64,000 nucleotides of DNA from an uncultured Hyphomicrobiaceae bacterium (GTDB lineage Bacteria; Pseudomonadota; Alphaproteobacteria; Rhizobiales; CAMYJA01). Of this stretch, positions 20,806 to 61,544 are shown one piece after another. Below the pieces are notes generated by a model that was not told where the DNA came from, did not search any database, and saw only the letters and a list, made by a program, of their open reading frames with translations. Position 1 is the first letter of the stretch. Each line of letters begins with the position of its first letter. Location of the stretch: assembly GCA_947258705.1 (NCBI GenBank), contig CAMYJA010000007.1, positions 211,695 through 275,694 of the forward strand, in the 5' to 3' direction. The position numbers and the translations under genes are program-made.

Positions 20806-20978
20806 AAATGGCGGGTGCATTGGGGACAGCATTGGTGGAGGGCAGCATCGATTAAGGGCCGTTAACCGCCGGGTGCCATCTCAGTCCTTTGCGCGAATGG
20901 CCTCCGGTTCCGCTCAAGATGCAAAACCAGCCGATTGAGGTTTTACGTTGCAAGGGCTGTTCGTCACACTAAGCAGAA
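20806..20978. repeat. ~170-bp direct repeat, copy 1 (ends in a degenerate double-palindrome site)
   Basis: Aligns by eye with 24173-24351 with scattered substitutions; CCTTTGCGCGAATGGCCTCCGGTTCCGCTCA is identical in both. Confidence 0.95.
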
Positions 20979-21784
20979 ACCGGAAGTCGCAATGTAACCG
21001 TTGCTCCTTTTTCAGGTCCGTCACTGCATACATAAAGCGCGCCCTGGTGCATTTCCGCGATACGAATAACGGACCACAATCCGAGCCCCGTACTCTTTTC
21101 GCCGCCAGTGGGGCGGGCAGATAGTTTTTGAAACGGCCGTCCGAAGTGAACCAAATCATCGGCTGTAAAACCTTGTCCCTGGTCTCGTATATGGATGAGG
21201 ACGGAGCTTTTCACGCGTCTGATCTCACAGCAAATATGCGTGCCGCACCGTGAATATTTGACGGCGTTGCCGATCAGATTGTCAATTGCTTCCACGAGCA
21301 ACATCTCGTTACAATTAACCAGACCAGCGTGACCGCTAATAGATATGGAGATCCGTTTTTTTTGCGCATTGTCCAAACTTAATTCGACGGCAGCAGCAAC
21401 GAGATCTTTCAACTGACAGGCTTCGAAGGCCATTGGATCTTTGCCGCCCCGAGCAATATCGATAAGTCGTTGCAGCATACCCTCAACCCGGTCCGCTGCA
21501 CGAAGACCGCGATCCAGGATCCTCTCCCTGTTGCGCAAATTGTCGTCCTGAGGTTTTCTGGCCAGAATCTCCAAAACAGATATGATACATGTTAGCGAGT
21601 TGCGTAAATCATGCGCGGTGATCGTCGCAAATTCCAACATTTCATTTTGTTGGTGCCACTGGTTGTCGGCAGCGTTTCCGTGACGCGACGGGCTGGTAAG
21701 ACCGGGATAAGATACCCGCTCATTAGAGCTGTTAATGTCGTGCGGTCTTTGAAGTTGTTCAAACATTCTTCTGGTCCAGGTCAC
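20969..21784 (-). CDS. Histidine kinase with HisKA and HATPase but no evident sensor domain
   Basis: H box AHDLRN, N box NLIGNAVKY, DQGQG and STGLGL motifs. Confidence 0.85.
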   Translation of the reverse strand: MTWTRRMFEQLQRPHDINSSNERVSYPGLTSPSRHGNAADNQWHQQNEMLEFATITAHDLRNSLTCIISVLEILARKPQDDNLRNRERILDRGLRAADRVEGMLQRLIDIARGGKDPMAFEACQLKDLVAAAVELSLDNAQKKRISISISGHAGLVNCNEMLLVEAIDNLIGNAVKYSRCGTHICCEIRRVKSSVLIHIRDQGQGFTADDLVHFGRPFQKLSARPTGGEKSTGLGLWSVIRIAEMHQGALYVCSDGPEKGATVTLRLPVSA

Positions 21785-21898
21785 CGGGCTTATTCGAAAA
21801 TTATTTAGCCGGGTGGGGGTTTCTGTTTTCGGTCATTATCAGTATTCGAGAGCAGCGCAGACGCTGTCTGTTAACTCCCGGATTTTCCGGGATTAGAT

Positions 21899-22249
21899 TC
21901 ACAACAACGCTCTCGGCGGTATGCACGGACTGGCTCGATGCTGTTCAAAATCATCTGATTGCCATGGGGCGCAACCTGTCGGCTTCAATTTTTGCGTCGA
22001 TTTGGATTTGCTGACGATCAGCCGGGCGGCATACCGCAATCCGTCGAGATCGATGTCGTGGGATTCGCTTGCGGCGAGAAGGAAAATGAGACCAAACGCC
22101 CGCAGAACAATTTTGAAACCGGACCTCTCGCGCGCGGTCCTCGCGATCGAGGTCGCGACCGGTGTCTCCACGGTCCGTGCAGTCTCGTCCATGCGTCGTG
22201 CGATCTGATCTTTACATAGCTCGGGATAGACTTTTGCCGGGTCAAACAT
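21899..22249 (-). CDS. Hypothetical protein divergent from LysR
   Basis: 116-aa ORF with AAGG-type RBS upstream; lies behind a LysR box. Confidence 0.5.
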   Translation of the reverse strand: MFDPAKVYPELCKDQIARRMDETARTVETPVATSIARTARERSGFKIVLRAFGLIFLLAASESHDIDLDGLRYAARLIVSKSKSTQKLKPTGCAPWQSDDFEQHRASPCIPPRALL

Positions 22250-22331
22250 TACCTTGTTCCTTGTCAGGTTTGTCGTGACCCAAATATGCGACCGTCTACA
22301 TCTAAACGGAAATACCGATTAGGTCTGAATT

Positions 22332-22350
22332 TGATAGCTAACGTCTATCA
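22332..22350. promoter_or_regulatory. LysR-type operator TGATAG-N7-CTATCA (T-N11-A)
   Basis: Perfect 6-bp arms between the divergent genes. Confidence 0.7.
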
Positions 22351-22410
22351 GACCGTCGGTGACATGATGCTTGACAAAAACTGCCGTCCCGAAGGGAGTT
22401 TTTCAAACCA

Positions 22411-23301
22411 ATGGAAATGCATCAAATCAGGTATTTTTTGGCAGTTTGCCAAACCCTCAATTTTACGCGTGCTGCAGAAGAATGTAATGTTGCACAGCCG
22501 TCGTTGACCCGCGCGATCAAAAAACTTGAGGCCGAACTTGGAGGCGAGCTTTTTTTGCGCGAACGCGCCCGAACGCATATCTCTGAACTTGGCCGGACGA
22601 TGCAGCCACTCCTTGCCAAGAGCTATGAAAGCGTACTGACGGCAAAGTTGCAGGCTGAACAATATAACAAGGTGGAGATCGCGCATCTCAGGCTTGGAGT
22701 GTCGCGCAGTGTCAATGCCGGCATTCTGATGACCGCACTGAAAGAGCTTAATGCAGCCCTGCCCGAGCTTGAGATACATCTTGTCCGGGGCTGCGCCGAC
22801 GAACTTGAAAAACTTCTCGAGGAGGGTGCGATTGAGCTCGCGATCACGGCAAAGGACGAACCCGATTGGTCGCGCATCGATCACTGGCCGTTGTTTTCGG
22901 AGGATTTCAAGGTGGCGATGAGCGCGGAACACCCATTGGCCAATCAGAGTTCCATCAAGCTCAAACAAATTACCAAAGAGTGCGTCGTCAGGAGGACACA
23001 TTGCGAGCATAGCGCCGCATTCAATGCTTTACTCCGTGCGCACAACTTGTCGATCGAGCATAGCCATGAAACGGCAAACGAGACCGATCACAAAATCATG
23101 CTCCGTAATGGAATGGGAGTGGGTATGGTGCCCAATAGCGTAGCCCCATCCGGCGATGGCATTATCAAACTTCCCTTGGAAGATATCGAGGTGCGGCGCT
23201 CGCTTGTTCTTCTCGCTGTTGCGGGCCGGAAATATTCAGTGCCAGCAGAATTGCTTATCAAGCTGCTCAGATCTTCCGACTGGTCCGACTATGAAAATTG
23301 A
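22411..23301 (+). CDS. LysR family transcriptional regulator
   Basis: N-terminal HTH NFTRAAEECNVAQPSLTRAIKKLEAELG; 296 aa. Confidence 0.95.
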   Translation: MEMHQIRYFLAVCQTLNFTRAAEECNVAQPSLTRAIKKLEAELGGELFLRERARTHISELGRTMQPLLAKSYESVLTAKLQAEQYNKVEIAHLRLGVSRSVNAGILMTALKELNAALPELEIHLVRGCADELEKLLEEGAIELAITAKDEPDWSRIDHWPLFSEDFKVAMSAEHPLANQSSIKLKQITKECVVRRTHCEHSAAFNALLRAHNLSIEHSHETANETDHKIMLRNGMGVGMVPNSVAPSGDGIIKLPLEDIEVRRSLVLLAVAGRKYSVPAELLIKLLRSSDWSDYEN

Positions 23302-23302
23302 G

Positions 23303-24001
23303 TCAGCTTGAGATACTGCCAAGTGCCGCCAGAATATCGTGTGGCGCCATGCGGGTGCGGAAGTCCGGGTGAACGTAATCCGCAATTATTTTTCCGTCCT
23401 GTGCAACGACATATGTGGCCGGCAGCGGCAAGAACATCCCATGATTTCCCTGGTCCGCGCCAAGATCGACGCCGAATTCCAGAAGTGCCTGATGCACAGC
23501 ATCTCCATTTGCCATCATCAATCCGCATGACAAAGCATAGCTGTTATCCATATCGCACAGTATCGCAAATGGCAGGTCAATGGCCTCCCGGAGCCGTTTT
23601 GCAGCAGGAACACGTTGCGGCGTTATCGATACAATTTCCGCGCCGAGGGCTTTAACCTCGTCATGAATGCCGGCAAGCCCCAGAAGCTCCAATTTGCAAT
23701 AGGGGCACCAATAGCCCCTGTTGAAACTTACAACGAGCGGGCCTGAGGCAAGCAGACTGTCAGAATTGACGAGACGCCCGTCAACATCCGGTAAAATGAA
23801 CTGGAGAAGTTTGGAGCCGGTCTTTATGGCATCCGACCCCGCGCCCGAAGATGTCAGCCGTTCCACAAGATCTTTGTACAGCGCGCCGAATTTTGGGAGA
23901 TTTTTATCCTCCCAGCGTGAAAATGCGGCAAGTTTCTCTGCCAGGGTAATGTCGAGGCATCTCAGCGCATCAAAATCGAGTTCCAAGGCTGTATCGCTCA
24001 T
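23303..24001 (-). CDS. Peroxiredoxin-like (AhpC/TSA) protein
   Basis: FNRGYWCPYC and LPLPATYVV motifs; start chosen at MSDTAL. Confidence 0.88.
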   Translation of the reverse strand: MSDTALELDFDALRCLDITLAEKLAAFSRWEDKNLPKFGALYKDLVERLTSSGAGSDAIKTGSKLLQFILPDVDGRLVNSDSLLASGPLVVSFNRGYWCPYCKLELLGLAGIHDEVKALGAEIVSITPQRVPAAKRLREAIDLPFAILCDMDNSYALSCGLMMANGDAVHQALLEFGVDLGADQGNHGMFLPLPATYVVAQDGKIIADYVHPDFRTRMAPHDILAALGSISS

Positions 24002-24172
24002 TTGCGGCCTATTTCCACTTGGGTGCACAACCAAACTTTAGTTGGTCGGCGATTTATGCAGGGTCAAACCTATAAAGCCCGGACGCCGGTGAAGCAATGG
24101 TCCTTTTCGTGGTCAATGGCGAATTACGAGCCAAAGAAATTTCGATGTCGGGCAGCTCTCTCGTCGCGGTAA

Positions 24173-24351
24173 AAATGGTGGGTGCATTGGGGGGCATTGG
24201 GGGCATTGGGGGAGGGCAGCACGATTAAGGGCCATTTACCGCCGGGTGCCGTCTCAGCCCTTTGCGCGAATGGCCTCCGGTTCCGCTCATGATGCAAAAC
24301 CAGCCGATTGAGGTTTTGCGCTGCAAGGGCTGTTCATGACCCAAGGCGGAC
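24173..24351. repeat. ~175-bp direct repeat, copy 2, ending in TGACCCAAGGCGGAC
   Basis: Direct repeat of 20806-20978; its last 15 bp are identical to 45065-45079. Confidence 0.95.
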
Positions 24352-24358
24352 CTTGCTG

Positions 24359-24697
24359 TCATTTCTCCACGAGCTTCTGAAGTCGTCCAATCGCATCATC
24401 CCATTGCTGCGACGCCCGTTCGAGATAGCGCTTTGCCTCGCCCAACCTGTTTGACTGGAGAGTGAAGCGAATTTCCCGCCCCACGCGTTCGCTTGTGACG
24501 AGGCGGGTTTGCTCCAAGATCGTCAGATGCTTGGTCACGCCCTGTCGGGAAAGTCCCATGCCACGTGTCAATTGCACAATCGATTGTGGTTGTCCGTTGG
24601 CGAGGCGCGCCAACAGCGCCAGGCGCTTTCTGTCGCCGAGAGCTGCGAACACTGGCGCGGCGGTGGTTGCGTTGAGTTCACGAGTGCGACGTGACAT
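24359..24697 (-). CDS. ArsR/SmtB family transcriptional regulator
   Basis: FAALGDRKR, LSRQGVTKHLTILE and RVGRE motifs. Confidence 0.92.
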   Translation of the reverse strand: MSRRTRELNATTAAPVFAALGDRKRLALLARLANGQPQSIVQLTRGMGLSRQGVTKHLTILEQTRLVTSERVGREIRFTLQSNRLGEAKRYLERASQQWDDAIGRLQKLVEK

Positions 24698-25130
24698 GGG
24701 CGGTAATGTTGTTTGCTTGAATGTCCCAGCCTTGGGTATTGCCACGCAGAACTTTAAGGCGACGAGGTTCAGGTAGCGCTTCGAAACCGCTTTCGGTGAT
24801 GGTCAAACGAGTTCCATCACTCGTTGGTTCAAGACGAAACTCGACGAGTGTCATTGGCTGTTCGGAAATATCAACACCCAGGTCTTCATCGAAGTCGTGC
24901 CATCTGAATGACAGAAACTCTTCAGGATCCAAACGCTCAACCACTGCTCGCCAAGGAAGGTGTTCGCAGCCCGGATAGGTCATCATGCCGGTGGACACGA
25001 CGCCAGGTTCGAAGGGTCCGTCTAACTTGACGCGGAACCATTGCCCAAACTCCAGGGGATCGGATAAGGCGCGCCAAACCCGAGCAACTGGCGCCGCCAA
25101 TTCGATTGTCTTGACGATACGATCGGCCAT
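24678..25130 (-). CDS. SRPBCC / AHSA1-like domain protein
   Basis: APVARVWRAL, TLVEFRLE...GTRLTITESGF and GW motifs; paired with ArsR. Confidence 0.92.
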   Translation of the reverse strand: MADRIVKTIELAAPVARVWRALSDPLEFGQWFRVKLDGPFEPGVVSTGMMTYPGCEHLPWRAVVERLDPEEFLSFRWHDFDEDLGVDISEQPMTLVEFRLEPTSDGTRLTITESGFEALPEPRRLKVLRGNTQGWDIQANNITAHVTSHS

Positions 25131-25134
25131 AAGA

Positions 25135-25195
25135 GCGACCTCTTGGTTGCTCATTACAGTATAATGTTGTTGGCAAATAGCAACCATAAGGTTGT
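25135..25195. promoter_or_regulatory. Two palindromic operators GC(A/G)ACC-N4-GGTTG(C/T), probably bound by the ArsR protein
   Basis: GCGACC-TCTT-GGTTGC at 25135-25150 and GCAACC-ATAA-GGTTGT at 25180-25195, directly upstream of the SRPBCC-arsR pair. Confidence 0.65.
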
Positions 25196-25206
25196 GCTTT
25201 AAAAGC

Positions 25207-25273
25207 GTCTCTTATTGGCCCATCGCGTCGATGTCACAAATCGGGGTCAGGGCAGCTTTTGCCAACAGCGGAC
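25207..25273. repeat. Right-boundary palindrome-family site
   Basis: Shares TTGGCCCA...AGCTTTTG...AACAGCGGA with 50560-50619. Confidence 0.7.
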
Positions 25274-25554
25274 GTAGACAGCTTGTAGCGGTGCACTTCG
25301 CTAATTTCCGCTCCTGTATAACTTCCGCCGAACGTCTCGTCGCCGGCAACCGTGATGCCATCTTCCCCTCCGGATCGACTGTCACCGTCTCCTCTGTCTC
25401 GCGACCTGCCGTTTTCCTGTGCGAAAGCTGCCGCCGGTTTACTTGTAAGCCCGGAACGAAAAATGCCGCGAACTCCGTTCCGAAGCCGCGGCATTAGCCG
25501 TTTCATGAACTGTCTCATGCGGTCGGCCGGGGCCGGATGCGCATGATTTGCGTA

Positions 25555-44982: not shown

Positions 44983-45014
44983 GGCTTAGGGCCTAAGGCC
45001 TAAGGCCTACGGCC
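44983..45014. repeat. Degenerate heptamer tandem (GGCCTAA-like x4)
   Basis: GGCTTAG GGCCTAA GGCCTAA GGCCTAC GGCC. Confidence 0.75.
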
Positions 45015-45064
45015 CGAGATCGCGGATCTGCGGCCTGCGGGTGTGCAGAGCTGCTGAGCTGGTC

Positions 45065-45079
45065 TGACCCAAGGCGGAC
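45065..45079. repeat. Left-boundary site TGACCCAAGGCGGAC
   Basis: Identical to 24337-24351. Confidence 0.85.
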
Positions 45080-45140
45080 GCAGACTCCAATTCGTCAGAT
45101 TAACGAGCTGAAGGTTTAGATCCGATGTGTCTGGCACAGG

Positions 45141-46172: not shown

Positions 46173-46423
46173 ATTATTCCAGGGATGAAAAATACCGCCC
46201 CATGCGAGCGTTCGCAACCAGGCGGTTATAACACCAATACTGAGAGTCGTTTACACCCCGTCAAACCGGGTGGCGGCAATATTAGAGGTAAAAACGCGAA
46301 AAGCAATTGTCGCCGCAGCCTCCGTCCTTCGCGCGAAGGACATCCAGATGCCGGTTGCCCAGGCAACCACCCGATTGTACGGCGGGTGTCATCCGTGCAG
46401 CGCGGATTGCGTCTATATGAAAT

Positions 46424-46462
46424 CCTCATGGTGAGGCGGACCTTAGTCCGTCTCGAACCATG
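46424..46462. repeat. REP-like palindrome CCTCATGGTGAGG...GTCTCGAACCATG
   Basis: Resembles Rhizobiales intergenic palindromic repeats; internal hairpin GGCGGAC-CTTA-GTCCGTC. Confidence 0.6.
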
Positions 46463-46619
46463 GGCAGCCGATTCGCTCCATGTCAGGCGCGGTTTGCGCG
46501 AACCAATATTGCGCGTTGCGCCAACCGGACAAATGCGGAGGGTTAGCGGTGTTAGTTTGTGTGCAGGAGGGGGCATTGGGCGACCGACAAACAAGGAGTT
46601 TGATCGACGCTGCCCAAGC

Positions 46620-46688
46620 GTCCGCTTATGAAGGAGCTGCGGTAGTACGAACGGTTACGTGAATGACGGTGGATAACCCGGAGCGGAA
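46620..46688. repeat. Internal double-palindrome site
   Basis: GTCCGC-N13-GCGGTA, 20-nt spacer, GACGGT-GGA-TAACCC-GGA-GCGGAA; same geometry as 24281-24351. Confidence 0.6.
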
Positions 46689-46760
46689 ATGGCGACCATA
46701 TTTTTGATTTATGGTAATGGTGCCAGCTATATTTTTGATTAAGTGGGTGCCAGCCTGCGT

Positions 46761-47747
46761 CTACCGATAATGCTTATAGAGCCACCAGGCAAAAACTCCG
46801 CCGAGCAATACGAGCATGAGAGAAACGATCCAGAAAGCATAGGGATGTTCGGCACCGGGAATGCCGCCAACATTGATACCAAGCAGGCCGGCTAGAAAGC
46901 TCAAAGGAAGAAAGACCGCCGCCGCAATCGACAGAACCAGCATCGTGCTGTTCATTTTCTCCGCAAGACGATTAGTCAGCGCTTCCTGAATGACAGTGAG
47001 TCGTTCCCGTGCCTCGGCGAGATCTTCGACATAGCGGGTCAGGCGTTGTGCGCTTTCCCTCAATTGTGCGCGACTTAACTCATCGAGCCAAGGCGCTTTC
47101 GCAACCGCCAACTGGGTGAGGACGTCGCGTTGCGGCACCAAATGTCGCTTGAGCGGAATGATTTGGAGCCGCAAATCGCGTACCTGCTTACGCAGTTCGC
47201 CAATATCAGAATGGTTGCGATCGCTTTGATCGTCGAGATCGTCGATATCATCGTTTAGCTTTTGAAGCACGTTACCGATTTTATTGATAAGACCGTCGAC
47301 AAGCACCGTCACAAAACCACCTAGGCTTTCGGGACAGTCGCCTGAATCTATATCCTGCCTGATTTCATGCAGACTTTGCACACGCCGCCTTTGCAGGGTA
47401 ATTATTCTGTTCCGTTCGATAAAAGCACGAACCGTAACGAGATCTTCGGGATCTTCGTGAGGGTTCATGTTGATGCCGCGCAGGAGAAGGAGGATACCTT
47501 TGGTGCCTACGTGAATTCGTGGTTGCGGATTGATCAACGTGAGCGCCTCGACAGTGTGCTCCGCCATGCTCGCATCCGAGATCAGCCAGCGTGCAGTTGC
47601 GGGATTATCCATATCAAAATGCATCCAATGCCAGACATCGTCTTCCGGTGATTCATGAAACACGTCCTTGTCATTTAATTTGAGCGGACTCTGTCCTGCG
47701 CCAAGTTCATAGCCGAAAAGCAATCCTATCTTATTCAGTTCGGTCAT
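46761..47747 (-). CDS. zntB: Zinc transporter ZntB / CorA family
   Basis: LLLLRGINMN, PQRD and FLPLSFLAGLLGINVGGIPG (GIN signature); ATGA overlap with the upstream gene. Confidence 0.88.
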   Translation of the reverse strand: MTELNKIGLLFGYELGAGQSPLKLNDKDVFHESPEDDVWHWMHFDMDNPATARWLISDASMAEHTVEALTLINPQPRIHVGTKGILLLLRGINMNPHEDPEDLVTVRAFIERNRIITLQRRRVQSLHEIRQDIDSGDCPESLGGFVTVLVDGLINKIGNVLQKLNDDIDDLDDQSDRNHSDIGELRKQVRDLRLQIIPLKRHLVPQRDVLTQLAVAKAPWLDELSRAQLRESAQRLTRYVEDLAEARERLTVIQEALTNRLAEKMNSTMLVLSIAAAVFLPLSFLAGLLGINVGGIPGAEHPYAFWIVSLMLVLLGGVFAWWLYKHYR

Positions 47748-50257: not shown

Positions 50258-50559
50258 AATGATTTGGCTTTCCTCGATACCCGCTCAGATTATCTGTGCC
50301 GGCGGATACTGCTACCACTAAAAGAAAATATGCCACCAGTTTTTGATAGTTGAAGTCTGGTACAAGCTTTGGCGTTTTCTCAATTATGGATATGGATCAA
50401 TTCTGAGATGTCAACGAGGCTTGATAATTTGAGGGCATGAAACCTTGGCCGACCGTTATCAACAGACACTTCCGTAACCGGTCTAACCCTGACATCAAAT
50501 GGCGCCGGAAACAAACACACCAGATTTGTCTGTATTTAAGACTCATTTGCACAACAAAT

Positions 50560-50619
50560 GTCCGCTCTTGGCCCAACTCTGCCAATCGGCCAATGAAAGC
50601 TTTTGGGGGAACAGCGGAA
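50560..50619. repeat. Right-boundary palindrome-family site
   Basis: GTCCGC-TCT-TGGCCC-AAC-TCTGCC, then GAAAGC-N13-GCGGAA; similar to 25207-25273. Confidence 0.75.
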
Positions 50620-50774
50620 TCTCGTCCCGACGGACAGTTCCGATTGCTTCAATGCATCATCTAAGTCCGCTCCCTCTGCAATGCCCTCACCTCCACACCT
50701 CCCCCACCGCCCGCACCTCCCAAACGCCCGCAAGTAAAATCCCGAGGCTTCCCTGCAAAACCCTGCCCCGGCTC

Positions 50775-50802
50775 TTGCCAAGCCCGCCCGCGTGCCTATA
50801 AT
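50775..50802 (+). promoter_or_regulatory. Sigma70-type promoter for purEK (TTGCCA-N16-TATAAT)
   Basis: Near-consensus -35 and perfect -10. Confidence 0.6.
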
Positions 50803-50869
50803 CGCGCGCTTTCCCCGGCCCAGGCCGACCTGGGCCGGCCTAGGCCGGCTTCGGGAGAGTGCTGCGAAA

Positions 50870-51349
50870 ATAGGCATTATCATGGGCAGCCAGTCCGACT
50901 GGCCGACCATGGAACGTGCCGCCGACATCCTCACCGAGCTTGAAATACCCTTCGAGGTCCGCATTGTCTCGGCGCACCGGACGCCGGACCGGCTATACGC
51001 CTATGCCCGGGGGGCCGAAGAACGGGGCCTGCAAATCATTATCGCGGGCGCGGGCGGTGCGGCGCATCTCCCCGGCATGACAGCTTCGCTGACCACCCTG
51101 CCCGTTTTCGGCGTTCCCATCGAAAGCCGCGCTCTTTCGGGCAAGGATAGTCTCCTGTCGATCGTTCAAATGCCCAGGGGGATTCCCGTCGGCACGCTCG
51201 CCATCGGCGATGCGGGCGCGTCGAACGCCGCACTTCTGGCGGCGCAGGTCCTGGCGCTTCATGACGCGGCGCTGGCCGGCCGGCTCAAGGCCTGGCGTCA
51301 GGCACAGACCGATGCGGTCGTGGAAACGCCCGAAAGTCAGGGTTCGTAG
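50870..51349 (+). CDS. purE: N5-CAIR mutase PurE (start codon uncertain)
   Basis: [25 protein letters not shown] and SIVQMP.GIPV motifs. Confidence 0.96.
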
Positions 51350-51352
51350 CCG

Positions 51353-52456
51353 ATGGCCGACCTGCCGCTGAAACCTGGAAGCACCATCGGGATTTTTGGC
51401 GGCGGCCAGCTCGGCCGCATGCTGGCCATGGCGGCTGCGGAACTCGGCTTTGCGACGCATATCTATTGCGATCATGACGGCTCTCCGGCCTCGCAGGTCG
51501 CGACCCGCACAAGCGTCGCCGCCTATGACGACATGGCCGCGCTCGAGCGGTTCGCGGGCTCGATCGACGTCGCCAGTTTCGAATTCGAAAACATCCCGAC
51601 GGAAGCGCTCGAATTCATATCGGCCCATACCCGCCTCGCGCCCGGCGCCAATACGCTCGACACCACAAGGGACCGCCTGGTGGAGAAGGAATTCGTCGCC
51701 GGTCTCGGGATTCCGGTGGCGCCTTTTGTCAATATCGGCGAAGAACTCGACCTCGACCTCGATGAAATTGGGGATAAGATCCGCTTTCCCGCACTGATGA
51801 AATCGCGGCGTTTCGGCTATGACGGCAAGGGCCAGGTCCGGGTCGTGTCGCCCGGCGAGATCCATGCGGCATGGGAGAGCCTCGACCGGGCCGCCTCGAT
51901 ACTCGAGGAGATCATTCCCTTTGAGCGCGAGTTCTCGACCGTGGCCGTCCGCGACGATGGCGGGGAAATGCTGTTTTACGATCTCACGGAGAACGATCAT
52001 GAGGGCGGCATATTGCGCCGCGCCCAGGTGCCGGCCGCGGCCCCTCCCGAAATACATGAAAAGGCCCGGGACATTGCCGGGATCATTGCCGCGCGGCTCG
52101 ACTATGTCGGAACCTTTGCGGTCGAATATTTTTATTGCGGCCCCGATTTCGAGCATCCGCTCATCGTCAACGAGATCGCCCCCCGGGTTCACAATACCGG
52201 CCACTGGACGATGGACGCGGCCCTGACGAGCCAGTTCGAAAATCATATCCGCGCCATTGCCGGCTGGCCGCTCGCCTCGACGATCAGGATCGCGGATGCG
52301 GTGATGACCAATCTCATCGGCGACGATCTCCTCAACTGGCCCCGGCTCGCGAAATCGCCCGAAAACGTCCTGCATATTTACGGCAAGGACGAAATCCGCG
52401 CCGGGCGTAAAATGGCGCATGTCACGCGGCTTTCGCCCAGAACGGGCTGGAACTGA
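51353..52456 (+). CDS. purK: N5-CAIR synthetase PurK
   Basis: GGGQLGRM, GYDGKGQ, NEIAPRVHNTGH and YGK...GRKMAH motifs. Confidence 0.97.
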   Translation: MADLPLKPGSTIGIFGGGQLGRMLAMAAAELGFATHIYCDHDGSPASQVATRTSVAAYDDMAALERFAGSIDVASFEFENIPTEALEFISAHTRLAPGANTLDTTRDRLVEKEFVAGLGIPVAPFVNIGEELDLDLDEIGDKIRFPALMKSRRFGYDGKGQVRVVSPGEIHAAWESLDRAASILEEIIPFEREFSTVAVRDDGGEMLFYDLTENDHEGGILRRAQVPAAAPPEIHEKARDIAGIIAARLDYVGTFAVEYFYCGPDFEHPLIVNEIAPRVHNTGHWTMDAALTSQFENHIRAIAGWPLASTIRIADAVMTNLIGDDLLNWPRLAKSPENVLHIYGKDEIRAGRKMAHVTRLSPRTGWN

Positions 52457-52464
52457 AGCGCCGG

Positions 52465-52558
52465 CCACCAGTGGGCCACTAGTGGCTCCCACTAGTGGGG
52501 GACCAATGGCCGTCAGATCGCCTCCAGCCAACCAGATGCAACCAGTTGCCACGAGTGG
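52465..52558. repeat. Cluster of degenerate 10-bp palindromes (CCACTAGTGG-like)
   Basis: Units at 52465, 52476, 52489, 52529, 52539 and 52549. Confidence 0.7.
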
Positions 52559-54174: not shown

Positions 54175-54200
54175 GACGAAATTCCCCTAATTCTCGAATT

Positions 54201-54236
54201 ATATGAGCCCTCATATGAGGCCTCATATGAGGCCTC
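54201..54236. repeat. 12-bp tandem repeat ATATGAG(C/G)CCTC x3
   Basis: Read directly; creates the palindrome CCTCATATGAGG; lies at the island's left edge. Confidence 0.85.
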
Positions 54237-54262
54237 GGTTTGGCCGTCATTTCTGCCAGAAC

Positions 54263-54359
54263 AGCTGCATTGCAGAGATAGCCGCCGTCGTCTTTAAGGT
54301 AGTATTGCTCGAACAAAGCCTGCGAGCTTTTGTCCGCAGGGCAGGTAAACGCAGACAAA
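54263..54359. repeat. Palindrome-family units at the left edge of the third accessory block
   Basis: AGCTGC-N12-GCCGCC (54263-54286) and TTT-GTCCGC-N13-GCAGAC-AAA (core 54332-54356). Confidence 0.6.
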
Positions 54360-54409
54360 TGCAATTGGTCCAGTGGCCGAGCGGGGAATCGACAGGACAC
54401 AGCCGATTG

Positions 54410-54561: not shown

Positions 54562-54564
54562 AAG

Positions 54565-54620
54565 GCGTACTGTACAATTACGGCGTGCACTGTACAATTG
54601 CGACGTGTGCTGTACAATTA
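54565..54620. repeat. Three direct repeats with core CTGTACAATT at 20-bp period
   Basis: TGTACAATT at 54571, 54591 and 54611. Confidence 0.9.
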
Positions 54621-54737
54621 TCATGTATGGCGTTGGAACTCATATAATAATTCACAGTAGAAAGTAATACACAGCTTAATGTCACGCAATTGACGTTCGC
54701 TAGTGACTTTTGGCCATTCTGCTTATTACAATATGGA

Positions 54738-57407
54738 ATGTTTCTAGAACTCGCAGATGTTGCCACACACCTTATAGCGCTCAGTCTGATTCAGGGACTC
54801 ATCGCCTGGCGATGGTCTGGTACGCTCATTGGTCAGGTTCTGTCGGGACTTCTGTTTGGCATTATTTGCGTGTCGGGCATGTCGAATCCGATCGAAATTG
54901 CGGCCGGCACGCTTTTCGTCAGCTGCACAATTATCTTGAGTATGGCCGGTTTGTTTGGCGGCCCCCTGGTCGCAGGTATCGCTATAACCACGGCGATTGG
55001 ATACAGCACATGGCTTGGTGGCAGCAGTATGCCATTGGGCATTGCTTCTATGATCACATCGACGCTTCTTGGTCTTGCTTTTCATTATTCCGACCTGGCG
55101 ATGGCGGCCATGAAAGATATCGCCATTCCCATGGTCATCATATTCACGCCGGCCACCGTCCTGTTGGGCATCTTGTTGAAGTCGTTTGAGGAGCAGGTCC
55201 GAACGAAAAATGCGCTCATAGCCAGCGATCAACGCCTCCGAATGTTCGCGAAAACCTTCCAGGCCAGTCCGACGCCATCCTCTATCTGCCGGCTTAACGA
55301 AGGCAGCTTCTACGACGTCAATGAAGCGTGGATGTCGGCCACGGGATATACGCGAGAGGAGGCCCTGGGACATAGCGCGCTCGAGCTCGGAATATGGGGC
55401 GATCCGGACAGGCAGGAGCAATTCGTCGAATTGCTCAAGAATGACGGAACCGTCAGTAATTTCGAAACCAAATTCAGGAACAAGAAGGGAGAGGAACGCG
55501 ACTTCCTCGTCTCCGTGGAACGCGTGGATTTTGGCCACGAGCCGATGTTGTTTTCTGTCTCTCATGACATCACAGCGCTCAAAAACTCAGAAATTATGAA
55601 TCTCAGGCTCGCACGCATCGTCGAGGATTCGATAAACGAAGTGTATGTGTTCGATGCCGAGACACTGGAGTTCATGCAGGTGAATGCGAGCGCCTGCGAA
55701 AATCTTGGCTACACTCAAGAGGAATTGCTCGGTCTGACGCCCCTCGACCTGAAACCAGAATATTCACATGACAAATTTTTTGAACTGATCGCGCCCCTCA
55801 GGAGTGGAGAGAAAGACCGAATACAGTTTAAGACCGTTCACATCGAAGACATCACCTTGCGCAAGATGGCTGAGGAAGCCCTCAGAGAGAGCGAAAATCA
55901 ACTCCGTGAAATTCTCGAGAACAGTCCGGTCGGCGTTGCAGTCGTCACTCATTCTAATGATGATGGCCGCCCGACCGGCAACCGGTTGTTCGTCAATAGC
56001 AGCCTCATGCGGATGTTCGGCGCTTCATCCCGAGGACAATTGTTGAAAGCGGATATTTCGGAAAGTTGGGTTGATCGCGATCAACTCAATACAGTCGAAA
56101 AAATTATGAGCCGCCGCGGGGAACTGGTTGATTTTGAGGTATTGAGACGCCGTATGGACGGGACCGAATTTTGGGTTTCGATGAATTCGCGCCCAATCCT
56201 TTTCAATGGCACGGACTGTAGTATGGTCTGGCATTTCGACATGACCAAACGCAAAAAGGCCGAGGAGCAGCTGCGCCAGGCCCAGAAGATGGAAGCTATT
56301 GGTCAACTTACAGGCGGAATTGCCCACGATTTTAACAACCTGCTTGCGGTAATTCTCGGTAATATTCAGCTTCTGGAAAAATCGATCGGAGGGGATGAAC
56401 GGGGCCGGCAGCAGCTGCGTTTTGCCGCGGATGCCGCCAGGCGCGGTTCTCAACTGGTTGAGCGGATGCTTGCCTTTTCCCGTAAGCAGAAGCTGGATTT
56501 GAAAATCATCGATGCCGACGATCTCCTCATCAACATCCGGGGTATGCTGTCACGCACGCTGGGGGAAAGGATCAAATTCAGGATAACAGGCAACAAAAAT
56601 CTCTGGTTGACCAAGGTGGATCCCAGTCAGCTCGAACTTGCGGTCCTGAATCTGACCATCAACGCTCGAGATGCCATGCCCGAGGGAGGGATGCTGACAA
56701 TTGATACGGAGAACGTCCATCTGGACGAAGACAGTCACTCCGTTGATTCCGAACTGTCGGCCGGAGATTACGTATCGATCACGGTCACCGACACAGGCAA
56801 GGGAATTCCCGCAGATATACTTGGCCAGGTTATCGAGCCTTTTTTCACCACTAAAGGCATCGGCCAGGGCAGCGGGCTTGGACTGAGCATGGTCTATGGT
56901 TTTGCCAGGCAATCCGGTGGCGGAGTCGAAGTCGTTAGTGAGATCGGCCAGGGAACGATGGTCAAGCTTTATCTTCCTCGTAACGCCGCGAAGAAAGCAG
57001 ATGCCCTGACAGTTGTTGCCAATGCCGGAAATCTCGTTGGCGGCAGCGAAAAAATCCTCGTTGTCGAGGATGACCCTGCGGTTTGCAGGGTCGCGGTGTC
57101 CTTGCTCGAAGAGCTTGGATATCGGGTTTTGAAGGCAAACGACGGCCCCTCTGCGATACAGGTGCTCAAGGACGAGCAGGTGGACCTACTTTTTAGCGAC
57201 ATCATTATGCCGGGCGGCCTGAGAGGCGATGAACTCGCCACGCTTGCCGTCAAGAGCTACCCCGAGCTCAAGGTGCTGCACTGCAGCGGTTATGGTCTGC
57301 CCAGGAATTTGCATGACGGCATCGCAATACCGGAACATGCCATGCTTAAAAAACCTTACCAAATCGAGGATCTGGCCACTTCTGTACGACAGGCATTGGA
57401 CGCTTGA
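54738..57407 (+). CDS. Hybrid sensor histidine kinase (5TM-LYT-like, PAS x3, HisKA, HATPase, REC)
   Basis: QAQKMEAIGQLTGGIAHDFNNLL, NARDAM, DTGKG, EPFFTTK, GSGLGL and ILVVEDD motifs. Confidence 0.92.
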   Translation: MFLELADVATHLIALSLIQGLIAWRWSGTLIGQVLSGLLFGIICVSGMSNPIEIAAGTLFVSCTIILSMAGLFGGPLVAGIAITTAIGYSTWLGGSSMPLGIASMITSTLLGLAFHYSDLAMAAMKDIAIPMVIIFTPATVLLGILLKSFEEQVRTKNALIASDQRLRMFAKTFQASPTPSSICRLNEGSFYDVNEAWMSATGYTREEALGHSALELGIWGDPDRQEQFVELLKNDGTVSNFETKFRNKKGEERDFLVSVERVDFGHEPMLFSVSHDITALKNSEIMNLRLARIVEDSINEVYVFDAETLEFMQVNASACENLGYTQEELLGLTPLDLKPEYSHDKFFELIAPLRSGEKDRIQFKTVHIEDITLRKMAEEALRESENQLREILENSPVGVAVVTHSNDDGRPTGNRLFVNSSLMRMFGASSRGQLLKADISESWVDRDQLNTVEKIMSRRGELVDFEVLRRRMDGTEFWVSMNSRPILFNGTDCSMVWHFDMTKRKKAEEQLRQAQKMEAIGQLTGGIAHDFNNLLAVILGNIQLLEKSIGGDERGRQQLRFAADAARRGSQLVERMLAFSRKQKLDLKIIDADDLLINIRGMLSRTLGERIKFRITGNKNLWLTKVDPSQLELAVLNLTINARDAMPEGGMLTIDTENVHLDEDSHSVDSELSAGDYVSITVTDTGKGIPADILGQVIEPFFTTKGIGQGSGLGLSMVYGFARQSGGGVEVVSEIGQGTMVKLYLPRNAAKKADALTVVANAGNLVGGSEKILVVEDDPAVCRVAVSLLEELGYRVLKANDGPSAIQVLKDEQVDLLFSDIIMPGGLRGDELATLAVKSYPELKVLHCSGYGLPRNLHDGIAIPEHAMLKKPYQIEDLATSVRQALDA

Positions 57408-57660: not shown

Positions 57661-59067
57661 TCAATCTCGGCGATCCACTGGTAGAAGGATTGAGACTGTC
57701 GTGCCGCCGTCAGCTGAAGTCGTCACATCGACATACCCGTTGGCGTTTTCAGCGAAGTCCTTGACCATGCTGAGACCGGAGCCGGTATCGGAACTTCTGT
57801 TTTTGGCGGTGACAGGTGTATCGAGGGCGGAATCCTCTTGGTTCGGGAGCACGTCGCCGCCGGAAACCGTAACCTGTATCATCACGTGTTCATCGAAATT
57901 TGTAGATTCCATGGAGCGATTGCTTACTGTCGAGTCGGGCGGCCTGACCGACACCTTGATCTCGCCGCCCCCCGGCATCGCATCGCGAGTGTTCAGCACC
58001 AGATTCAAGAGAGCGTTTTCGAACTCTCCAACGTCGATATGGACGAAAGCCTCAGGTGATTGCAGATCAAGATTGATGCGATACGCCCTGCCCAGGAGCC
58101 GCGTTAAAAATTTACCCATCCGTGAGACCACTTCCACACATGGTTCCGTCGTCACAGAGGCAATTCGAGGCCGGGAAAACGTCAGCAGACAGTCGGTCAA
58201 CTCTTTGCCCACCTGAACCGCTTCCATTGCATCATTAAGTGCATTGCCCGCCTTGTCGTCCAATTTATCAACCGAAGCGAGCCTTAAGACCTCAAGGTTG
58301 GAGTTAACTGCTGTCAGCGTGTTGTTGAAGTCGTGAGCCATGCTTCCGGCGAGCTCACGCAAGAGCTCCAATTTCTGTTGCTGCTTTGAGTTCCCTTCTG
58401 CCGCCAACAGTTCGGTAACACGCAGGCCAAGTGTCAAGATCTGGCCATCATCCAAAATAAAGTCTGTTATACCCGTCCTTTGATTGTCATTGTGTCGGAA
58501 GATCAGGCTATTTGCCGGATTGTTGCGGCGATCGAGTCGTTGCGCAATCCAGTCTTCTGTGTCCTGGGCGGAGCTACCGATCCCATTCGCTTTGGCAAAA
58601 GCACGCACGATGTCCTCGTACCGGATACCCGGTTTCACGGAAACACCTGCCGATTCATAGATACGGCCGCATTCCCGATTGCAAAAGACGAGATGATCCT
58701 CAGAATCGAAAAGTGCAATTTCGACCGGTGTGGAATTCAGTGCGGTTGCCAGCCGGGTCTCGACTTTACTCCGTGTACTGATCACATAGGTAAGAATACA
58801 AACGCCGATGACAAAGCCCAGACCGACCACACCATAAAGTATTTCATCAGCGCTTAATGACAATTGCGGTGGCCAGATAACTTTGGATGAAAATCGATTA
58901 TAAAACTCATGGAATATAAACAATCCAATTATAGCAACAAGTGTTAGCACCGCCCATTGCCTTATTCTTAACAATATCAATAGACAGATAAAGAATCCAG
59001 TTACAATAAGGATTGATATTATGTATAATGCTAAGTTCATCCAGTATTTTACTAATTGAGTATACAA
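57661..59067 (-). CDS. Membrane PAS histidine-kinase-like protein with degenerate ATP-binding boxes
   Basis: AHDFNN and NLVLNTRDAM intact; G1 and F boxes replaced by VSGGD and DTPVTAK. Confidence 0.8.
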   Translation of the reverse strand: MYTQLVKYWMNLALYIISILIVTGFFICLLILLRIRQWAVLTLVAIIGLFIFHEFYNRFSSKVIWPPQLSLSADEILYGVVGLGFVIGVCILTYVISTRSKVETRLATALNSTPVEIALFDSEDHLVFCNRECGRIYESAGVSVKPGIRYEDIVRAFAKANGIGSSAQDTEDWIAQRLDRRNNPANSLIFRHNDNQRTGITDFILDDGQILTLGLRVTELLAAEGNSKQQQKLELLRELAGSMAHDFNNTLTAVNSNLEVLRLASVDKLDDKAGNALNDAMEAVQVGKELTDCLLTFSRPRIASVTTEPCVEVVSRMGKFLTRLLGRAYRINLDLQSPEAFVHIDVGEFENALLNLVLNTRDAMPGGGEIKVSVRPPDSTVSNRSMESTNFDEHVMIQVTVSGGDVLPNQEDSALDTPVTAKNRSSDTGSGLSMVKDFAENANGYVDVTTSADGGTTVSILLPVDRRD

Positions 59068-59267
59068 ACTAAGTGGCTTTAAATCTCTATGAAAACGGCA
59101 AGTTTCGAAAATTCCATTTTGATGCGACTAAGAATTATTCTAGACTAATTGTCGACGTTTTTGAAATACACACAGGTTGTAGGAGGTCGCATAGGACAGT
59201 CAGAAGTTGAATCGTTCCAATCATGAAGCGAATAATAAAAATGTGAAACTTTTTTGGGCGAGCAGAA

Positions 59268-59900
59268 ATGATGACGGCGGAAAATCAAAATTACGAGGTC
59301 TGTGTTGTTGAAGACGATCCCCTTGTCAGCAAGGGGCTAACCTCGTTGCTCGAACAAAAGGGATTTTCGGTTCAGTCATTCGCGACAGGTCATCAGATTC
59401 AAAACGAAACTTCGAGTTTGACCTGTTGCTGCGTCCTTCTCGACATCAACCTCCCGGATATCCATGGGCTCGATGTCCTGCGCAAGCTCAGATCCTGCCG
59501 CCCGGACATAAATGTCATAATGATCACCGGTCAGGCAGACATTCCGACTGCCGTCAAAGCCATGCAGCATGGCGCCCTGGATTTTATCGAAAAGCCGCCA
59601 ACAGCCGATAGGCTGATAGAAGCGATTGACCGCTCGCTGCAATTAAGTAAACAGGAAATCCAAAATCAACCTGGAGACAATGGCGAACTTCGCCCGCCAC
59701 TCGACAAGCTCACAACAAGAGAGCTTGAGGTGCTCGTGCAGCTCGTAAAAGGCCATCAACATAAAATGATCGCCCACGAGCTTGGTATTAGCCACAGAAC
59801 CGTCGAGGTCCATCGAGCACGAATCATGAAGCGTTGCGGCGCAAATTCTTTCGCTGAACTCATAAGAATAGCCGTCCTCTCCGGTCTCCAAATCGAATAG
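59268..59900 (+). CDS. FixJ/LuxR-family response regulator
   Basis: VVEDD, LLDINLP, TGQADIPTAVKAM..GA.DFIEKP and LT.RE...LGISHRTVEVHRARIM motifs. Confidence 0.93.
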   Translation: MMTAENQNYEVCVVEDDPLVSKGLTSLLEQKGFSVQSFATGHQIQNETSSLTCCCVLLDINLPDIHGLDVLRKLRSCRPDINVIMITGQADIPTAVKAMQHGALDFIEKPPTADRLIEAIDRSLQLSKQEIQNQPGDNGELRPPLDKLTTRELEVLVQLVKGHQHKMIAHELGISHRTVEVHRARIMKRCGANSFAELIRIAVLSGLQIE

Positions 59901-59944
59901 CCAAATCGAAAAATACTGAGACCAGTTATAGCGGCTACATGGAT

Positions 59945-60006
59945 TCCCTTAAGTGCTATCCCCTAATGGTTTAATGACATAACTGCATCCCTTAAGGACT
60001 ATCCCC
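59945..60006. promoter_or_regulatory. Paired 19-bp direct repeats TCCCTTAAG(TG/GA)CTATCCCC, FixJ-box-like
   Basis: Copies at 59945-59963 and 59988-60006, 43 bp apart. Confidence 0.55.
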
Positions 60007-60131
60007 AACTAGCGGCGCTTTAACCAAATCGAATAGCTTTGAATCATAGCTGGCGCACGCCGGTGCGTTAGTGGGACAGTTTGCCGGATATCCAAACGCC
60101 GACGGGCGGGTATAGAGGGGCTGTGAAAAAA

Positions 60132-60377
60132 ATGATCGAAGCTAAAGACTATATTGATAGTTGCACCGACAAAGACAGCTTACGAAAAACGGACAAAGAC
60201 ATCGTACGGAAAGCAGATAAGGACATCGTGCGAAAAGCGCTCGAATTGGCTATTGATCTCCGCTATCTCGTGGCCGACGGTACACTTAACGATCCGAAAT
60301 TTGCGATTAGCCTTGCATTCGTGCTCGAGCAATATGCTGAAGCGGAGCGCGGTAACACCGGTAACCAGCTCCCCTGA
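60132..60377 (+). CDS. Small hypothetical protein with 8-aa internal repeats
   Basis: DKDSLRKT-DKDIVRKA-DKDIVRKA; AGAGGGG RBS upstream. Confidence 0.5.
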   Translation: MIEAKDYIDSCTDKDSLRKTDKDIVRKADKDIVRKALELAIDLRYLVADGTLNDPKFAISLAFVLEQYAEAERGNTGNQLP

Positions 60378-60810
60378 AGTGTCGACGTTTTCGTAAGGAT
60401 CTATTGTGCTCTTGAAGGAGACGGTGTTCCTATTTAGCGATCAAGAGACAGATTAGGGTATTCTACGAAGTGTAACCTTGACTCATTCAATCCCTGAGGA
60501 TCAAACGGCCATTGTAAAGCCCCTTTGTTATGGGCCATTTCTTGAAAGAGTTTCAGGTGCCGGAGGACGCATGTTAAGCGCCTGATGCGGACGGATGTGA
60601 TTGTACTGTCTGAGCGGAATGGCAGCCGATCTCAAAATTTAGACGTCAAGCGCTGATCGCGCAGAATTTCACCTTTGCCTGTTTCGCAGACTAATGCGTG
60701 GATCGCGTCTCTTCCTGTCATTCAATACACTTCACATGATGCACCTGAAGCCGACAAGGACGTTTGTTTTTAGAGATGATGGTCACTCACTCAACATGAG
60801 GAGTAGACCT

Positions 60811-61443
60811 ATGAAGTATTTTGAAAAACTTATCTCTAAGACGAACAGACGCGATCCCTGGAACAAAGGTAAGCTCATCGGCCCCAAGCCACCGCTTCGG
60901 CCAAAACATGTCTGGGCGGTTCGAACCAAACTTCAGATGGAACGCCGAACAAGGGACCTGGCCCTGTTCAATCTCGCGATCGACAGCAAACTCCGCGGCT
61001 GCGATGTTGTGCGGGTTCGTGTCGAGGACATTGCGCCTCGGGGATACGCGGTCGATCGTGCCATCGTTCGGCAGAGCAAGACCGGCCGACCGGTCAAGTT
61101 CGAGCTAACCGAGCAAACACGGGAGTCGCTGGACGACCACCTTCGAGAAGTGAGCCGTGAATGCGGGCAGTATCTCTTTCCGGGACGTGGAAAGGGCACG
61201 CACCTGACAACTCGTCAATATGCACGCTTGCTTGGCGACTGGCTCGCGAGCATAGGTCTTGATCCGTCGCTGTACGGCACGCATTCCCTGCGCCGTACAA
61301 AGGCTACGCTGATTTATAAGCGCACTGGGAACCTGCGCGCCGTCCAGCTTTTGCTGGGCCACTCGAAAATTGAGAGCACAGTTCGATATATAGGTATTGA
61401 GGTAGACGATGCTCTCGAAATCGCGGAACAGGTCGACATCTGA
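60811..61443 (+). CDS. Compact tyrosine recombinase/integrase (210 aa)
   Basis: Catalytic R (DSKLRGCD), K (QSKT), HxxR (HSLRRT), H (LLGH) and Y (TVRY); GAGGAG RBS. Confidence 0.95.
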   Translation: MKYFEKLISKTNRRDPWNKGKLIGPKPPLRPKHVWAVRTKLQMERRTRDLALFNLAIDSKLRGCDVVRVRVEDIAPRGYAVDRAIVRQSKTGRPVKFELTEQTRESLDDHLREVSRECGQYLFPGRGKGTHLTTRQYARLLGDWLASIGLDPSLYGTHSLRRTKATLIYKRTGNLRAVQLLLGHSKIESTVRYIGIEVDDALEIAEQVDI

Positions 61444-61450
61444 AACACTA

Positions 61451-61474
61451 GGGCAGAGCCTACGGGCTCTGCCC
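61451..61474. repeat. Perfect hairpin GGGCAGAGCC-TACG-GGCTCTGCCC immediately after the recombinase
   Basis: 10-bp perfect stem with no U-tract on either side. Confidence 0.9.
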
Positions 61475-61519
61475 ATTCGGCACGGATGAGATCAACAGAC
61501 AATGCCGAGCGAGTATTTG

Positions 61520-61544
61520 GTCAGCATTGCACTCATCAGCTGAC
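61520..61544. repeat. Palindrome-family unit GTCAGC-N13-GCTGAC
   Basis: Perfect 6-bp arms; same geometry as the block-boundary units. Confidence 0.7.

Follow-up and report, generated by a model that had tools for sequence, protein, structure and literature searches.

Parts of a candidate gene-cassette system with a compact tyrosine recombinase in an uncultured Hyphomicrobiaceae bacterium

A 64,000-nt stretch of an uncultured Hyphomicrobiaceae genome (assembly GCA_947258705.1, contig CAMYJA010000007.1, positions 211,695 to 275,694; the whole stretch is called the window here) carries a gene for a 210-aa tyrosine recombinase and three blocks of genes edged by short repeated units (Table 1). A preliminary description, made from the letters of the window and its open reading frames (ORFs), took the recombinase and the units for a cassette system resembling integrons, and this candidate system is the subject of the present analysis. 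In blocks 1 and 2, gene calls agree with that description in that all cargo except the LysR regulator points the same way, toward the end marked by TGACCC. The G+C content (GC) is 0.50-0.53 in block 1 (at 21-24 kb) and 0.50-0.51 in block 3 (at 47-50 kb), and mostly 0.55-0.60 across the first 47 kb of the window. The purE-purK pair, identified with family models, lies just beyond block 3 (50792-52456). The source genome is the sole member of its family among the genomes compared, and its relatives align only as core-gene fragments. An Rfam scan at gathering thresholds and a tRNA scan of the window returned nothing; since the tRNA scan was empty, the window has no tRNA-type attachment site.

Table 1. 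Features of the putative cassette system in the window. Sites 1, 2 and 3 are the members of the three-site junction described in the text; matrix, score of the 28-nt site matrix; HMM, junction hidden Markov model.
Feature	Positions	Strand	Basis
Copy A of ~175-nt repeat	20806-20962	-	repeat comparison
Decayed site-1 unit closing block 1: TTCTGC TTA GTGTGA CGA acagcc	20953-20980	-	matrix 8.2
Block 1 cargo: AhpC/TSA-like protein, LysR regulator (+ strand), hypothetical protein, histidine kinase	20969-24034	-	Pfam
Copy B of ~175-nt repeat; junction remainder with site-2-like element	24176-24335	-	HMM aligns site 1 through site 2
Site-1 unit closing block 2: GTCCGC CTT GGGTCA TGA acagcc	24326-24353	-	matrix 17.7; HMM 24281-24355, E 6.8e-4
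Block 2 cargo: SRPBCC/AHSA1 protein and helix-turn-helix regulator (HTH_20/MarR/ArsR-type)	24359-25187	-	Pfam
Site-3-like unit opening block 2: cgacgc GAT GGGCCA ATA AGAGAC	25205-25232	-	matrix 10.6
Site-2-like unit: GTCCGC TGT TGGCAA AAG ctgccc	25250-25273	-	resembles 50596-50619 by eye; 25248-25275 matrix 7.6
Site-1 half-site closing block 3: GTCCGC CTT GGGTCA, then unrelated sequence	45054-45081	-	15-mer identical to 24337-24351
Block 3 cargo: YdjM (45141-46217), CorA (46761-47861), MscS-type channel (47744-50257)	45141-50257	-	Pfam
Weak site-1-like unit between CorA and YdjM: TTCCGC TCC GGGTTA ...	46663-46690	-	matrix 9.9; HMM E 10, not significant
Site-3-type unit opening block 3: ggcaga GTT GGGCCA AGA GCGGAC; cargo-side right arm conserved	50558-50585	-	matrix 23.3; HMM E 1.5e-3
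Site-2-like unit: TTCCGC TGT TCCCCC AAA agcttt	50596-50619	-	in HMM match 50555-50618, profile positions 53-126
Upstream site-1 type of recombinase unit; right arm GCAGAC kept, left arm and centre decayed	60668-60691	+	aligned to relatives
Second upstream site; right arm GAAGCCGAC kept	60732-60755	+	aligned to relatives
Tyrosine recombinase, 210 aa, catalytic domain only	60811-61443	+	Pfam PF00589 and XerA/XerD alignment
Conserved hairpin GGGCAGAGCC-TACG-GGCTCTGCCC directly after stop codon	61451-61474	+	52-sequence alignment
Expected downstream site-3 type; left arm alone resembles close relatives	61481-61504	+	by eye against L026, L028, L031; matrix <0
Perfect 6-bp-arm palindrome, 13-nt core, site-2-like	61520-61544	+	arms 6/6; in weak HMM match 61494-61550, E 0.099

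The recombinase is a member of the tyrosine recombinase superfamily, with the R-K-H-R-H/W-Y set in a PF00589 domain that is its sole Pfam match (residues 46-194, E 2e-17). The catalytic R, K, H-x-x-R, H and Y positions align, and the LRG, K, HSLRR, LLGHS and RY motifs match those of XerD and XerA. The alignment to XerA and XerD begins only at about their residue 92, so the protein lacks a core-binding domain. The Xer proteins (XerA, XerC and XerD) are its best family and structure matches, and it falls far under their cut-offs and that of the invertases: 59 bits against 335 for XerC, 43 against 330 for XerD, 17.1 against 222 for the FimB/FimE invertase model NF007371, with XerA likewise out of reach. 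With TIGR02249, the model of the integron integrases and their extra domain, the score is 27.5 bits where 265 is required, and the match is confined to residues 155-196; the enzyme is by its sequence not an IntI, as the preliminary description had argued from its length.

The gene is single copy in this genome and belongs to a very large, tightly conserved family: all 8000 candidates scored matched it. The best 120 homologues, 202-236 aa long and 65-85% identical, are spread across classes, many of them on contigs of ~1 kb. Species-representative genomes hold 471 relatives, from which 80 loci were retained; counts for foreign loci refer to these 80 unless stated otherwise. Among plasmid records, 2035 match the recombinase, 85 of them at 60% identity or more.

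At the foreign loci the gene is accompanied by an imperfect palindrome of 24-28 nt, with arms of ~11 bp (..GTCCGCNNN / NNNGCGGAC..) around an asymmetric centre of 6 bp, sometimes 7. After the gene, the consensus is GTCCGC-N3-GKGYCA-N3-GCGGAC, which is perfect in L038 and L052, while L050 carries a pair of sites whose arms are 11 bp long. Foreign sites alone, 26 in number, went into a 28-nt matrix, which places a site (score of at least 14) ~43 nt past the last codon, beyond a conserved hairpin, in 28 of the 80 loci. A second site lies ~140 nt before the gene (760-775 nt before its end) in 18 of the 80; alignment confirms this position, which did not contribute to the matrix. Because fixed sites occur both upstream and downstream, the gene is bounded by sites ~810 nt apart. 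Orientation is biased as well, with 112 of 127 sites across the 80 loci running with the gene and 15 opposite to it. A search with the arms only, ignoring the centre and read in gene orientation, returns GTGCCA 26 times and GGGTCA 24 times; TGACCC appears twice and TGGCAC falls outside the 25 commonest centres. Read on the opposite strand, GGGTCA and GGGCCA become TGACCC and TGGCCC, and therefore the consensus put forward in the preliminary description (GTCCGC-N3-TGACCC/TGGCCC-N3-GCGGAC, with a 12- or 13-nt core) is that of this site family. The family is real, with its sites beside recombinase homologues and at fixed places on both sides of the gene.

The hairpin directly after the stop codon was aligned in 52 sequences, 51 loci drawn from the 80 by a search for the hairpin-arm motif plus the window. 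In many relatives (L015-L071) this hairpin, which lies at 61451-61474 in the window, holds AGCGGACAT, identical to a right arm of the site; it may be an extra binding element, beyond a terminator.

A 28-bp site of 11-6-11 geometry is the feature of Xer/dif and of the pdif modules of Acinetobacter plasmids, where such sites bound gene modules, and with XerA, XerC and XerD as the closest relatives of the enzyme (a related fold), the sites might be used by host XerC and XerD, the small recombinase being just another cargo gene. This is highly improbable given that both arms carry the same sequence inverted, which suits one protein over a XerC/XerD pair, that the site distances on both sides of the gene are fixed across Alpha- and Betaproteobacteria, and that sites co-occur with the recombinase gene. 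By eye, the sites are also unlike a dif core. The candidate system has a dedicated small recombinase next to symmetric-armed sites, and within an array all sites follow one another in direct order; pdif sites alternate.

Sites are also grouped. Paired matrix matches ~91 nt apart are the outer members of three tandem sites, which together make a junction of ~120 nt: ATGTCCGCTTT-GGGTCA-TTAGCGGACAT, then ...-ACCCCC(R)-..., then ATGTCCGCTAA-GTGCCA-GAAGCGGACAT, the third centre being GTGCCA or GGGCCA. Junctions of three sites are present in this genome too (contigs C52, C53, C55, C56 and C61). A junction HMM built from 12 aligned foreign junctions has 12 matches at E <0.01 in the genome, two of them in the window (24281-24355, and 50555-50618, where sites 2 and 3 are spanned); a junction search in plasmids gave one weak match, unannotated.

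Three sub-sites within ~120 nt beside a recombinase gene recall the res regions of Tn3-family resolvases and the IRS of TnpI, which likewise hold several dimer-binding sub-sites, and the ~200-aa size without a separate core-binding domain recalls FimB and FimE. The gene could accordingly be read as a multimer-resolution or inversion module that resolves replicon dimers or flips a segment, the other copies being remnants, and the frequency of homologues on plasmids would suit such a role. A resolvase would, on the other hand, delete the DNA between the many chromosomal direct-repeat sites that lie 0.5-3 kb apart; the sites are direct rather than inverted around a promoter, and the protein is far under the cut-off of NF007371. 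Each sub-site has full symmetric arms and a centre of its own, and junctions recur many times per genome, unlike res and IRS. A resolution or inversion module is for these reasons very unlikely.

Homology between loci breaks at the sites. Ten locus pairs have a common stretch of 400 nt or longer at no less than 88% identity, and of their 18 internal breakpoints 7 fall within 30 nt of a site, as do 2.2% of random positions. Nothing but 834 nt (98.8% identity) is common to L059 and L060, and nothing but 838 nt to L043 and L071; each time this is the recombinase unit, running from one site to the other, and the surroundings are unrelated. In the pair L033/L039, homology starts at a site: the left arms differ and the sequence is identical from the centre on. 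Within this genome, C42 and C55 begin with 99 nt in common, equal to the overlap length of the assembler, and diverge exactly after GTGCCA; this is the sole site-related case, one of four contig-end pairs. In the window, unit 24326-24353 has the left arm and centre of 45054-45081 and the right arm and next ~150 nt of 20953-20980, and is evidently a mosaic with its seam at the centre. A 914-aa gene follows a strong site in both C42 and L059, but the two genes are unrelated.

A betaproteobacterial subfamily of the recombinase (~61% identity; L076, L081, L078, L094) forms with its ends a unit of ~800 nt that has inverted ends of ~37 bp, TGGCCGATTGTAC... and ...GTACAATCGGCCA, the outer arms being inverted too. 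Two contigs of one betaproteobacterial genome (767 and 797 nt) consist of the recombinase unit alone, as an insertion sequence (IS) would appear. A circular form of these contigs was rejected, as they carry inverted ends in place of a terminal overlap. Ends and outer arms that are both inverted fit a palindromic circle site recombined into a palindromic target.

An array can be followed on a plasmid of Roseomonas gilardii (L096, NZ_CP015585.1), which has two recombinase copies, each after a RelE/ParE pair, alternating with genes for catB, GST, VOC and NUDIX proteins and an enoyl-CoA hydratase. Variant sites separate the genes: each recombinase copy is followed by ...CGACCC-N3-GCGGAC, and GTCCGC...GCAGAC units stand between the cargo genes.

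In the source genome, the matrix finds 32 sites at a score of at least 16, compared with 6 in a reversed-sequence genome and 3, 3 and 2 in three Markov-1 simulations; at a score of at least 14, the counts are 49 against 16 and 7, 7 and 13. Site density is 0.54 per 10 kb on contigs shorter than 30 kb and 0.046 on larger ones. Sites are often near contig ends, and same-orientation arrays occupy C25, C52, C37, C27 and C55. In all, the arrays are divided among contigs C25, C27, C36, C37, C42, C47, C50, C52-C56 and C61. The genes between them are single and mixed: YtoQ, Sel1-repeat proteins, a threonine dehydratase, an FGE-type enzyme, GGACT, GNAT, EamA and a patatin. That the whole might be chance motif matches together with unrelated IS remnants, with no system behind them, could be argued from the poor palindromes of most units listed in the preliminary description, from the near-chance frequency of the strict pattern in the genome, and from the IS110-type and IS3-type elements that adjoin two paralogous units. 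This view is already contradicted by the enrichment over controls, the fixed positions, the orientation bias and the coincidence of breakpoints with sites, and deserves next to no credence.

The recombinase (E <=1e-40) is present in 36 of 200 other genomes of the same order. Five or more matches to the strict site pattern, with at most one mismatch, occur in 6 of the 36 positive and in 5 of the 164 negative genomes, a threshold picked after the table was seen and applied to related genomes that are not independent; reversed-pattern controls in these 11 genomes give 0-2 matches. Co-occurrence of motif and recombinase family, the lack of which the preliminary description had named as a refutation, is seen within these limits. 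As for its expectation that the motif would exceed randomised sequence, the matrix bears it out and the strict pattern fails it.

Around the recombinase of the window, the region 60668-60755 corresponds to the two upstream sites of relatives: 60668-60691 aligns with their ATGTCCGCTTT-GGGTCA-TTAGC... site ~140 nt before the start codon, and 60732-60755 with their conserved AAAAGCTGAC arm, ~53 nt past site 1. The palindrome at 61520-61544, which the preliminary description had named as the other flank, falls only in a weak HMM match. At the block edges, two of the units that it had listed (24326-24353 and 50558-50585) are significant with models built from foreign sequence; 24100-24127 and 54329-54356 score below zero, and 25205-25232, 46663-46690, 20953-20980 and 25248-25275 are weak or decayed. 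Nor are the listed 24-nt units palindromes, as had been claimed: the arms pair at 3/6, 3/6, 2/6 and 2/6 positions in the left-edge units at 20955, 24328, 45056 and 46665, and 61520-61544 alone reaches 6/6. The strict pattern matches at 43201, 50957 and 54332, and only the last (54332-54356) coincides with a listed unit. Support for that unit through a paralogous region on C42 was rejected, the regions upstream of the two two-component modules not being homologous. Further matrix matches lie at 24680-24707 (15.8, inside an ORF and probably chance) and at 16749 (11.3).

Block 1 sits between two ~175-nt junction remainders, each preceded by a site-1 unit when the minus strand is taken as site orientation. 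These remainders form a direct repeat (20806-20978 and 24176-24351, ~89% identical) with only two copies in the genome; it was tried as a genome-wide element and, with two copies only, rejected. The 15-mer TGACCCAAGGCGGAC likewise stands at 24337-24351 and 45065-45079 and nowhere else in the genome. The window also has paralogues of its units elsewhere: 25216-25320 is 74% identical to C60:866-970, and 50566-50620 is 89% identical to C8:1611-1665. A reading of such units as the tails of small coding genes (25207-25330 compared with C60) was dropped when the site family came to light. Blocks 2 and 3 and the recombinase unit have their conserved arms turned toward the cargo, the outer arms being unrelated; the edge units of block 1 (24100-24127, score <0, and 20953-20980, score 8.2) are too decayed to show a direction. 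Inward-facing arms would fit circles whose good sites recombined with poor ones, or outer arms that have decayed.

Conserved sites at fixed positions, their orientation bias and enrichment, and the homology breaks that fall on them argue that the window probably holds parts of a site-specific gene-cassette system run by the small tyrosine recombinase, whose own gene would be a ~0.8-kb module of that system. The preliminary description had arrived at a non-integron cassette system tied to a compact recombinase, and this much is supported by fixed motif positions, co-oriented arrays and homology breaks. In such a system, recombinase dimers would bind the arms of a site, two sites with the same centre would pair, and strands would be exchanged at the borders of the centre, presumably in double-stranded substrates. 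Two junctions in direct order would yield a circle with the cargo and one junction, and the circle could then insert elsewhere, at a further junction or at a chromosomal sequence that resembles a site. As the preliminary description had supposed, the single recombinase gene would act in trans, here on intact arrays that sit on other contigs of the genome, mostly small ones.

Several observations weigh against this interpretation. The sites of the window are mostly half-sites with one good arm and a centre, while the intact arrays are elsewhere in the genome; the recombinase's own flanking sites are decayed, and several of the listed units score at or under background. The strict pattern GTCCGC-N10-15-GCGGAC, with at most one mismatch, has 107 matches in the 2.77-Mb genome, which is near chance. 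The genomes with the closest homologues, G002 (85%) and G001 (83%), have zero strict matches because their sites are looser, and five fragmentary or recombinase-negative genomes carry 5-16. By crude ORF calls, the ORFs between sites in foreign arrays number 38 on the minus and 28 on the plus strand; some intervals hold several genes, and some cargo, for example FabA and UPF0182, is housekeeping-like. The accessory status of the blocks is judged from GC. The gene pair of block 2 has a match of 68% identity in another family (G041), which, as no sites adjoin it, is uninformative. Comparisons of loci point to discrete mobility of the recombinase unit and of no cargo block, and the proposed mechanism does not account for three different centres in each junction.

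Part of the same evidence would suit a system like REP (repetitive extragenic palindrome)/RAYT, in which an enzyme gene has copies of its repeat on either side; the same holds for this single-copy gene. The three-site element of ~120 nt would then lie between genes as a non-autonomous repeat that depends on the recombinase for its spread or maintenance, and the genes between would be ordinary chromosomal ones, which accords with mixed cargo in both directions, housekeeping-like genes included, with a block 2 homologue free of adjoining sites, and with a mobility of cargo blocks that is itself only inferred. The sites are nevertheless co-oriented over many kb (112 against 15), locus homology breaks exactly at site centres, sites in this genome are concentrated in arrays on small contigs and not evenly distributed, and the window blocks are low in GC; moreover, the enzyme is a tyrosine recombinase (PF00589 only) and not an HUH (Y1) transposase. 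A REP/RAYT-like origin is consequently regarded as unlikely.

A bolder version of the cassette interpretation, which on balance is doubtful, is that this is a second, unrecognised and widespread cassette system. An autonomous ~0.8-kb unit would mobilise itself and neighbouring cargo via double-stranded palindromic sites, and the three centres would serve as mutually exclusive addresses. Paired crossovers might exchange modules from one array to another, in a natural version of recombinase-mediated cassette exchange, and modules might also be excised as circles, and the window gene might serve one large array broken up by the assembly.

The candidate system resembles integrons in its tyrosine recombinase, in the arrays of small mixed-function modules between imperfect-palindrome sites (~60-140 nt in total) and in the service of many modules by one enzyme. 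By contrast with integrons, the enzyme here is 210 aa long, is devoid of a core-binding domain and fails the IntI model. Its sites are short palindromes with a GTCCGC/GCGGAC consensus and would need no folding, whereas attC sites recombine as folded single strands and have R''/L''...L'/R' boxes (RYYYAAC...GTTRRRY); the site consensus ATGTCCGCTTT-N6-AAAGCGGACAT contains no GTTRRRY box. The recombinase gene lies inside the array, co-oriented with it and with sites on both sides, and an attI/Pc platform is missing; in integrons, intI is placed outside the array and divergent from it, together with attI and the Pc promoter. Cargo genes point in both directions, instead of being mostly single co-oriented promoterless genes, and each junction is made of three sites that differ in their centres. 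Another parallel is found in the tandem accretion of integrative elements and in cis-mobilizable elements (CIMEs), with recombinase-less modules between direct att-type sites beside a recombinase-encoding module. The autonomous unit here measures ~0.8 kb, whereas those elements span tens of kb; its target is neither a tRNA nor the 3' end of a gene, its sites are palindromic and its junctions have three sites.

No description of the system was found in open-access full text, with the site strings among the queries; the preliminary description had likewise known of none. The chances that the system is undescribed so far are put at about even. The passages available from a classification of tyrosine recombinases (PMC8138268) are silent on proteins without a core-binding domain, and its subfamily tables may be relevant to the naming of this family. 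Tsy, according to passages of PMC10293859, is a different multi-gene element that targets comM.

If the cassette interpretation is true, integrons are not the sole dedicated cassette-capture systems in bacteria. Such a system may matter for the gathering and moving of accessory and resistance genes, given the catB gene beside the recombinase copies in one plasmid array. Its junctions may explain the poor assembly of such genomes, in which sites pile up at contig ends, and an 11-6-11 site, a 210-aa enzyme and naturally distinct centres would make a compact set for genome engineering.

Other mobile elements and repeats lie close to site units. An IS110-family transposase (C60:1244-2311, minus strand) is situated between a junction-like unit at C60:913-979, the counterpart of window 25216-25320, and further sites on C27 (C60:866-2559, C27:1-923). 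An IS110 element beside a junction-like unit recalls the IS1111-type elements, which reportedly target integron attC sites. At C8:1-1760, an IS3-family element ends at ~C8:1611 and abuts the site-2/site-3 unit that is 89% identical to window 50566-50620; the 100 nt after that unit match the beginning of a C25 module at 94% identity. In the window, short tandem repeats adjoin site units at 24186-24215 (GGCATTGGGG-type), 44985-45012 (AGGCCTA-type) and 54203-54235 (ATGAGGCCTC-type). A second, unrelated family of dispersed repeats, 120-450 nt long and 75-98% identical, is abundant in the genome (C4, C12, C20, C26, C32, C34, C39 and C44).

A 519-aa ORF antisense to purE-purK (50993-52552, minus strand) has no family match and is probably spurious. 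Between 54690 and 60377 the window encodes two histidine kinases and a LuxR-type response regulator. A paralogous module on contig C42 has a response regulator with 75% protein identity and begins directly after C42:83-110, which is among the best sites of the genome. Upstream of the hybrid histidine kinase gene (54690-57407), CTGTACAATT occurs in three direct copies at ~20-nt spacing (54570-54625), which look like an operator. The interval 58000-64000 is low in GC (0.45-0.52), and the recombinase unit may mark the border of a larger island extending beyond the window end. Two small genes there, 62929-63468 and 63697-63999, match no curated family above cut-off and by eye are phage- or plasmid-like.

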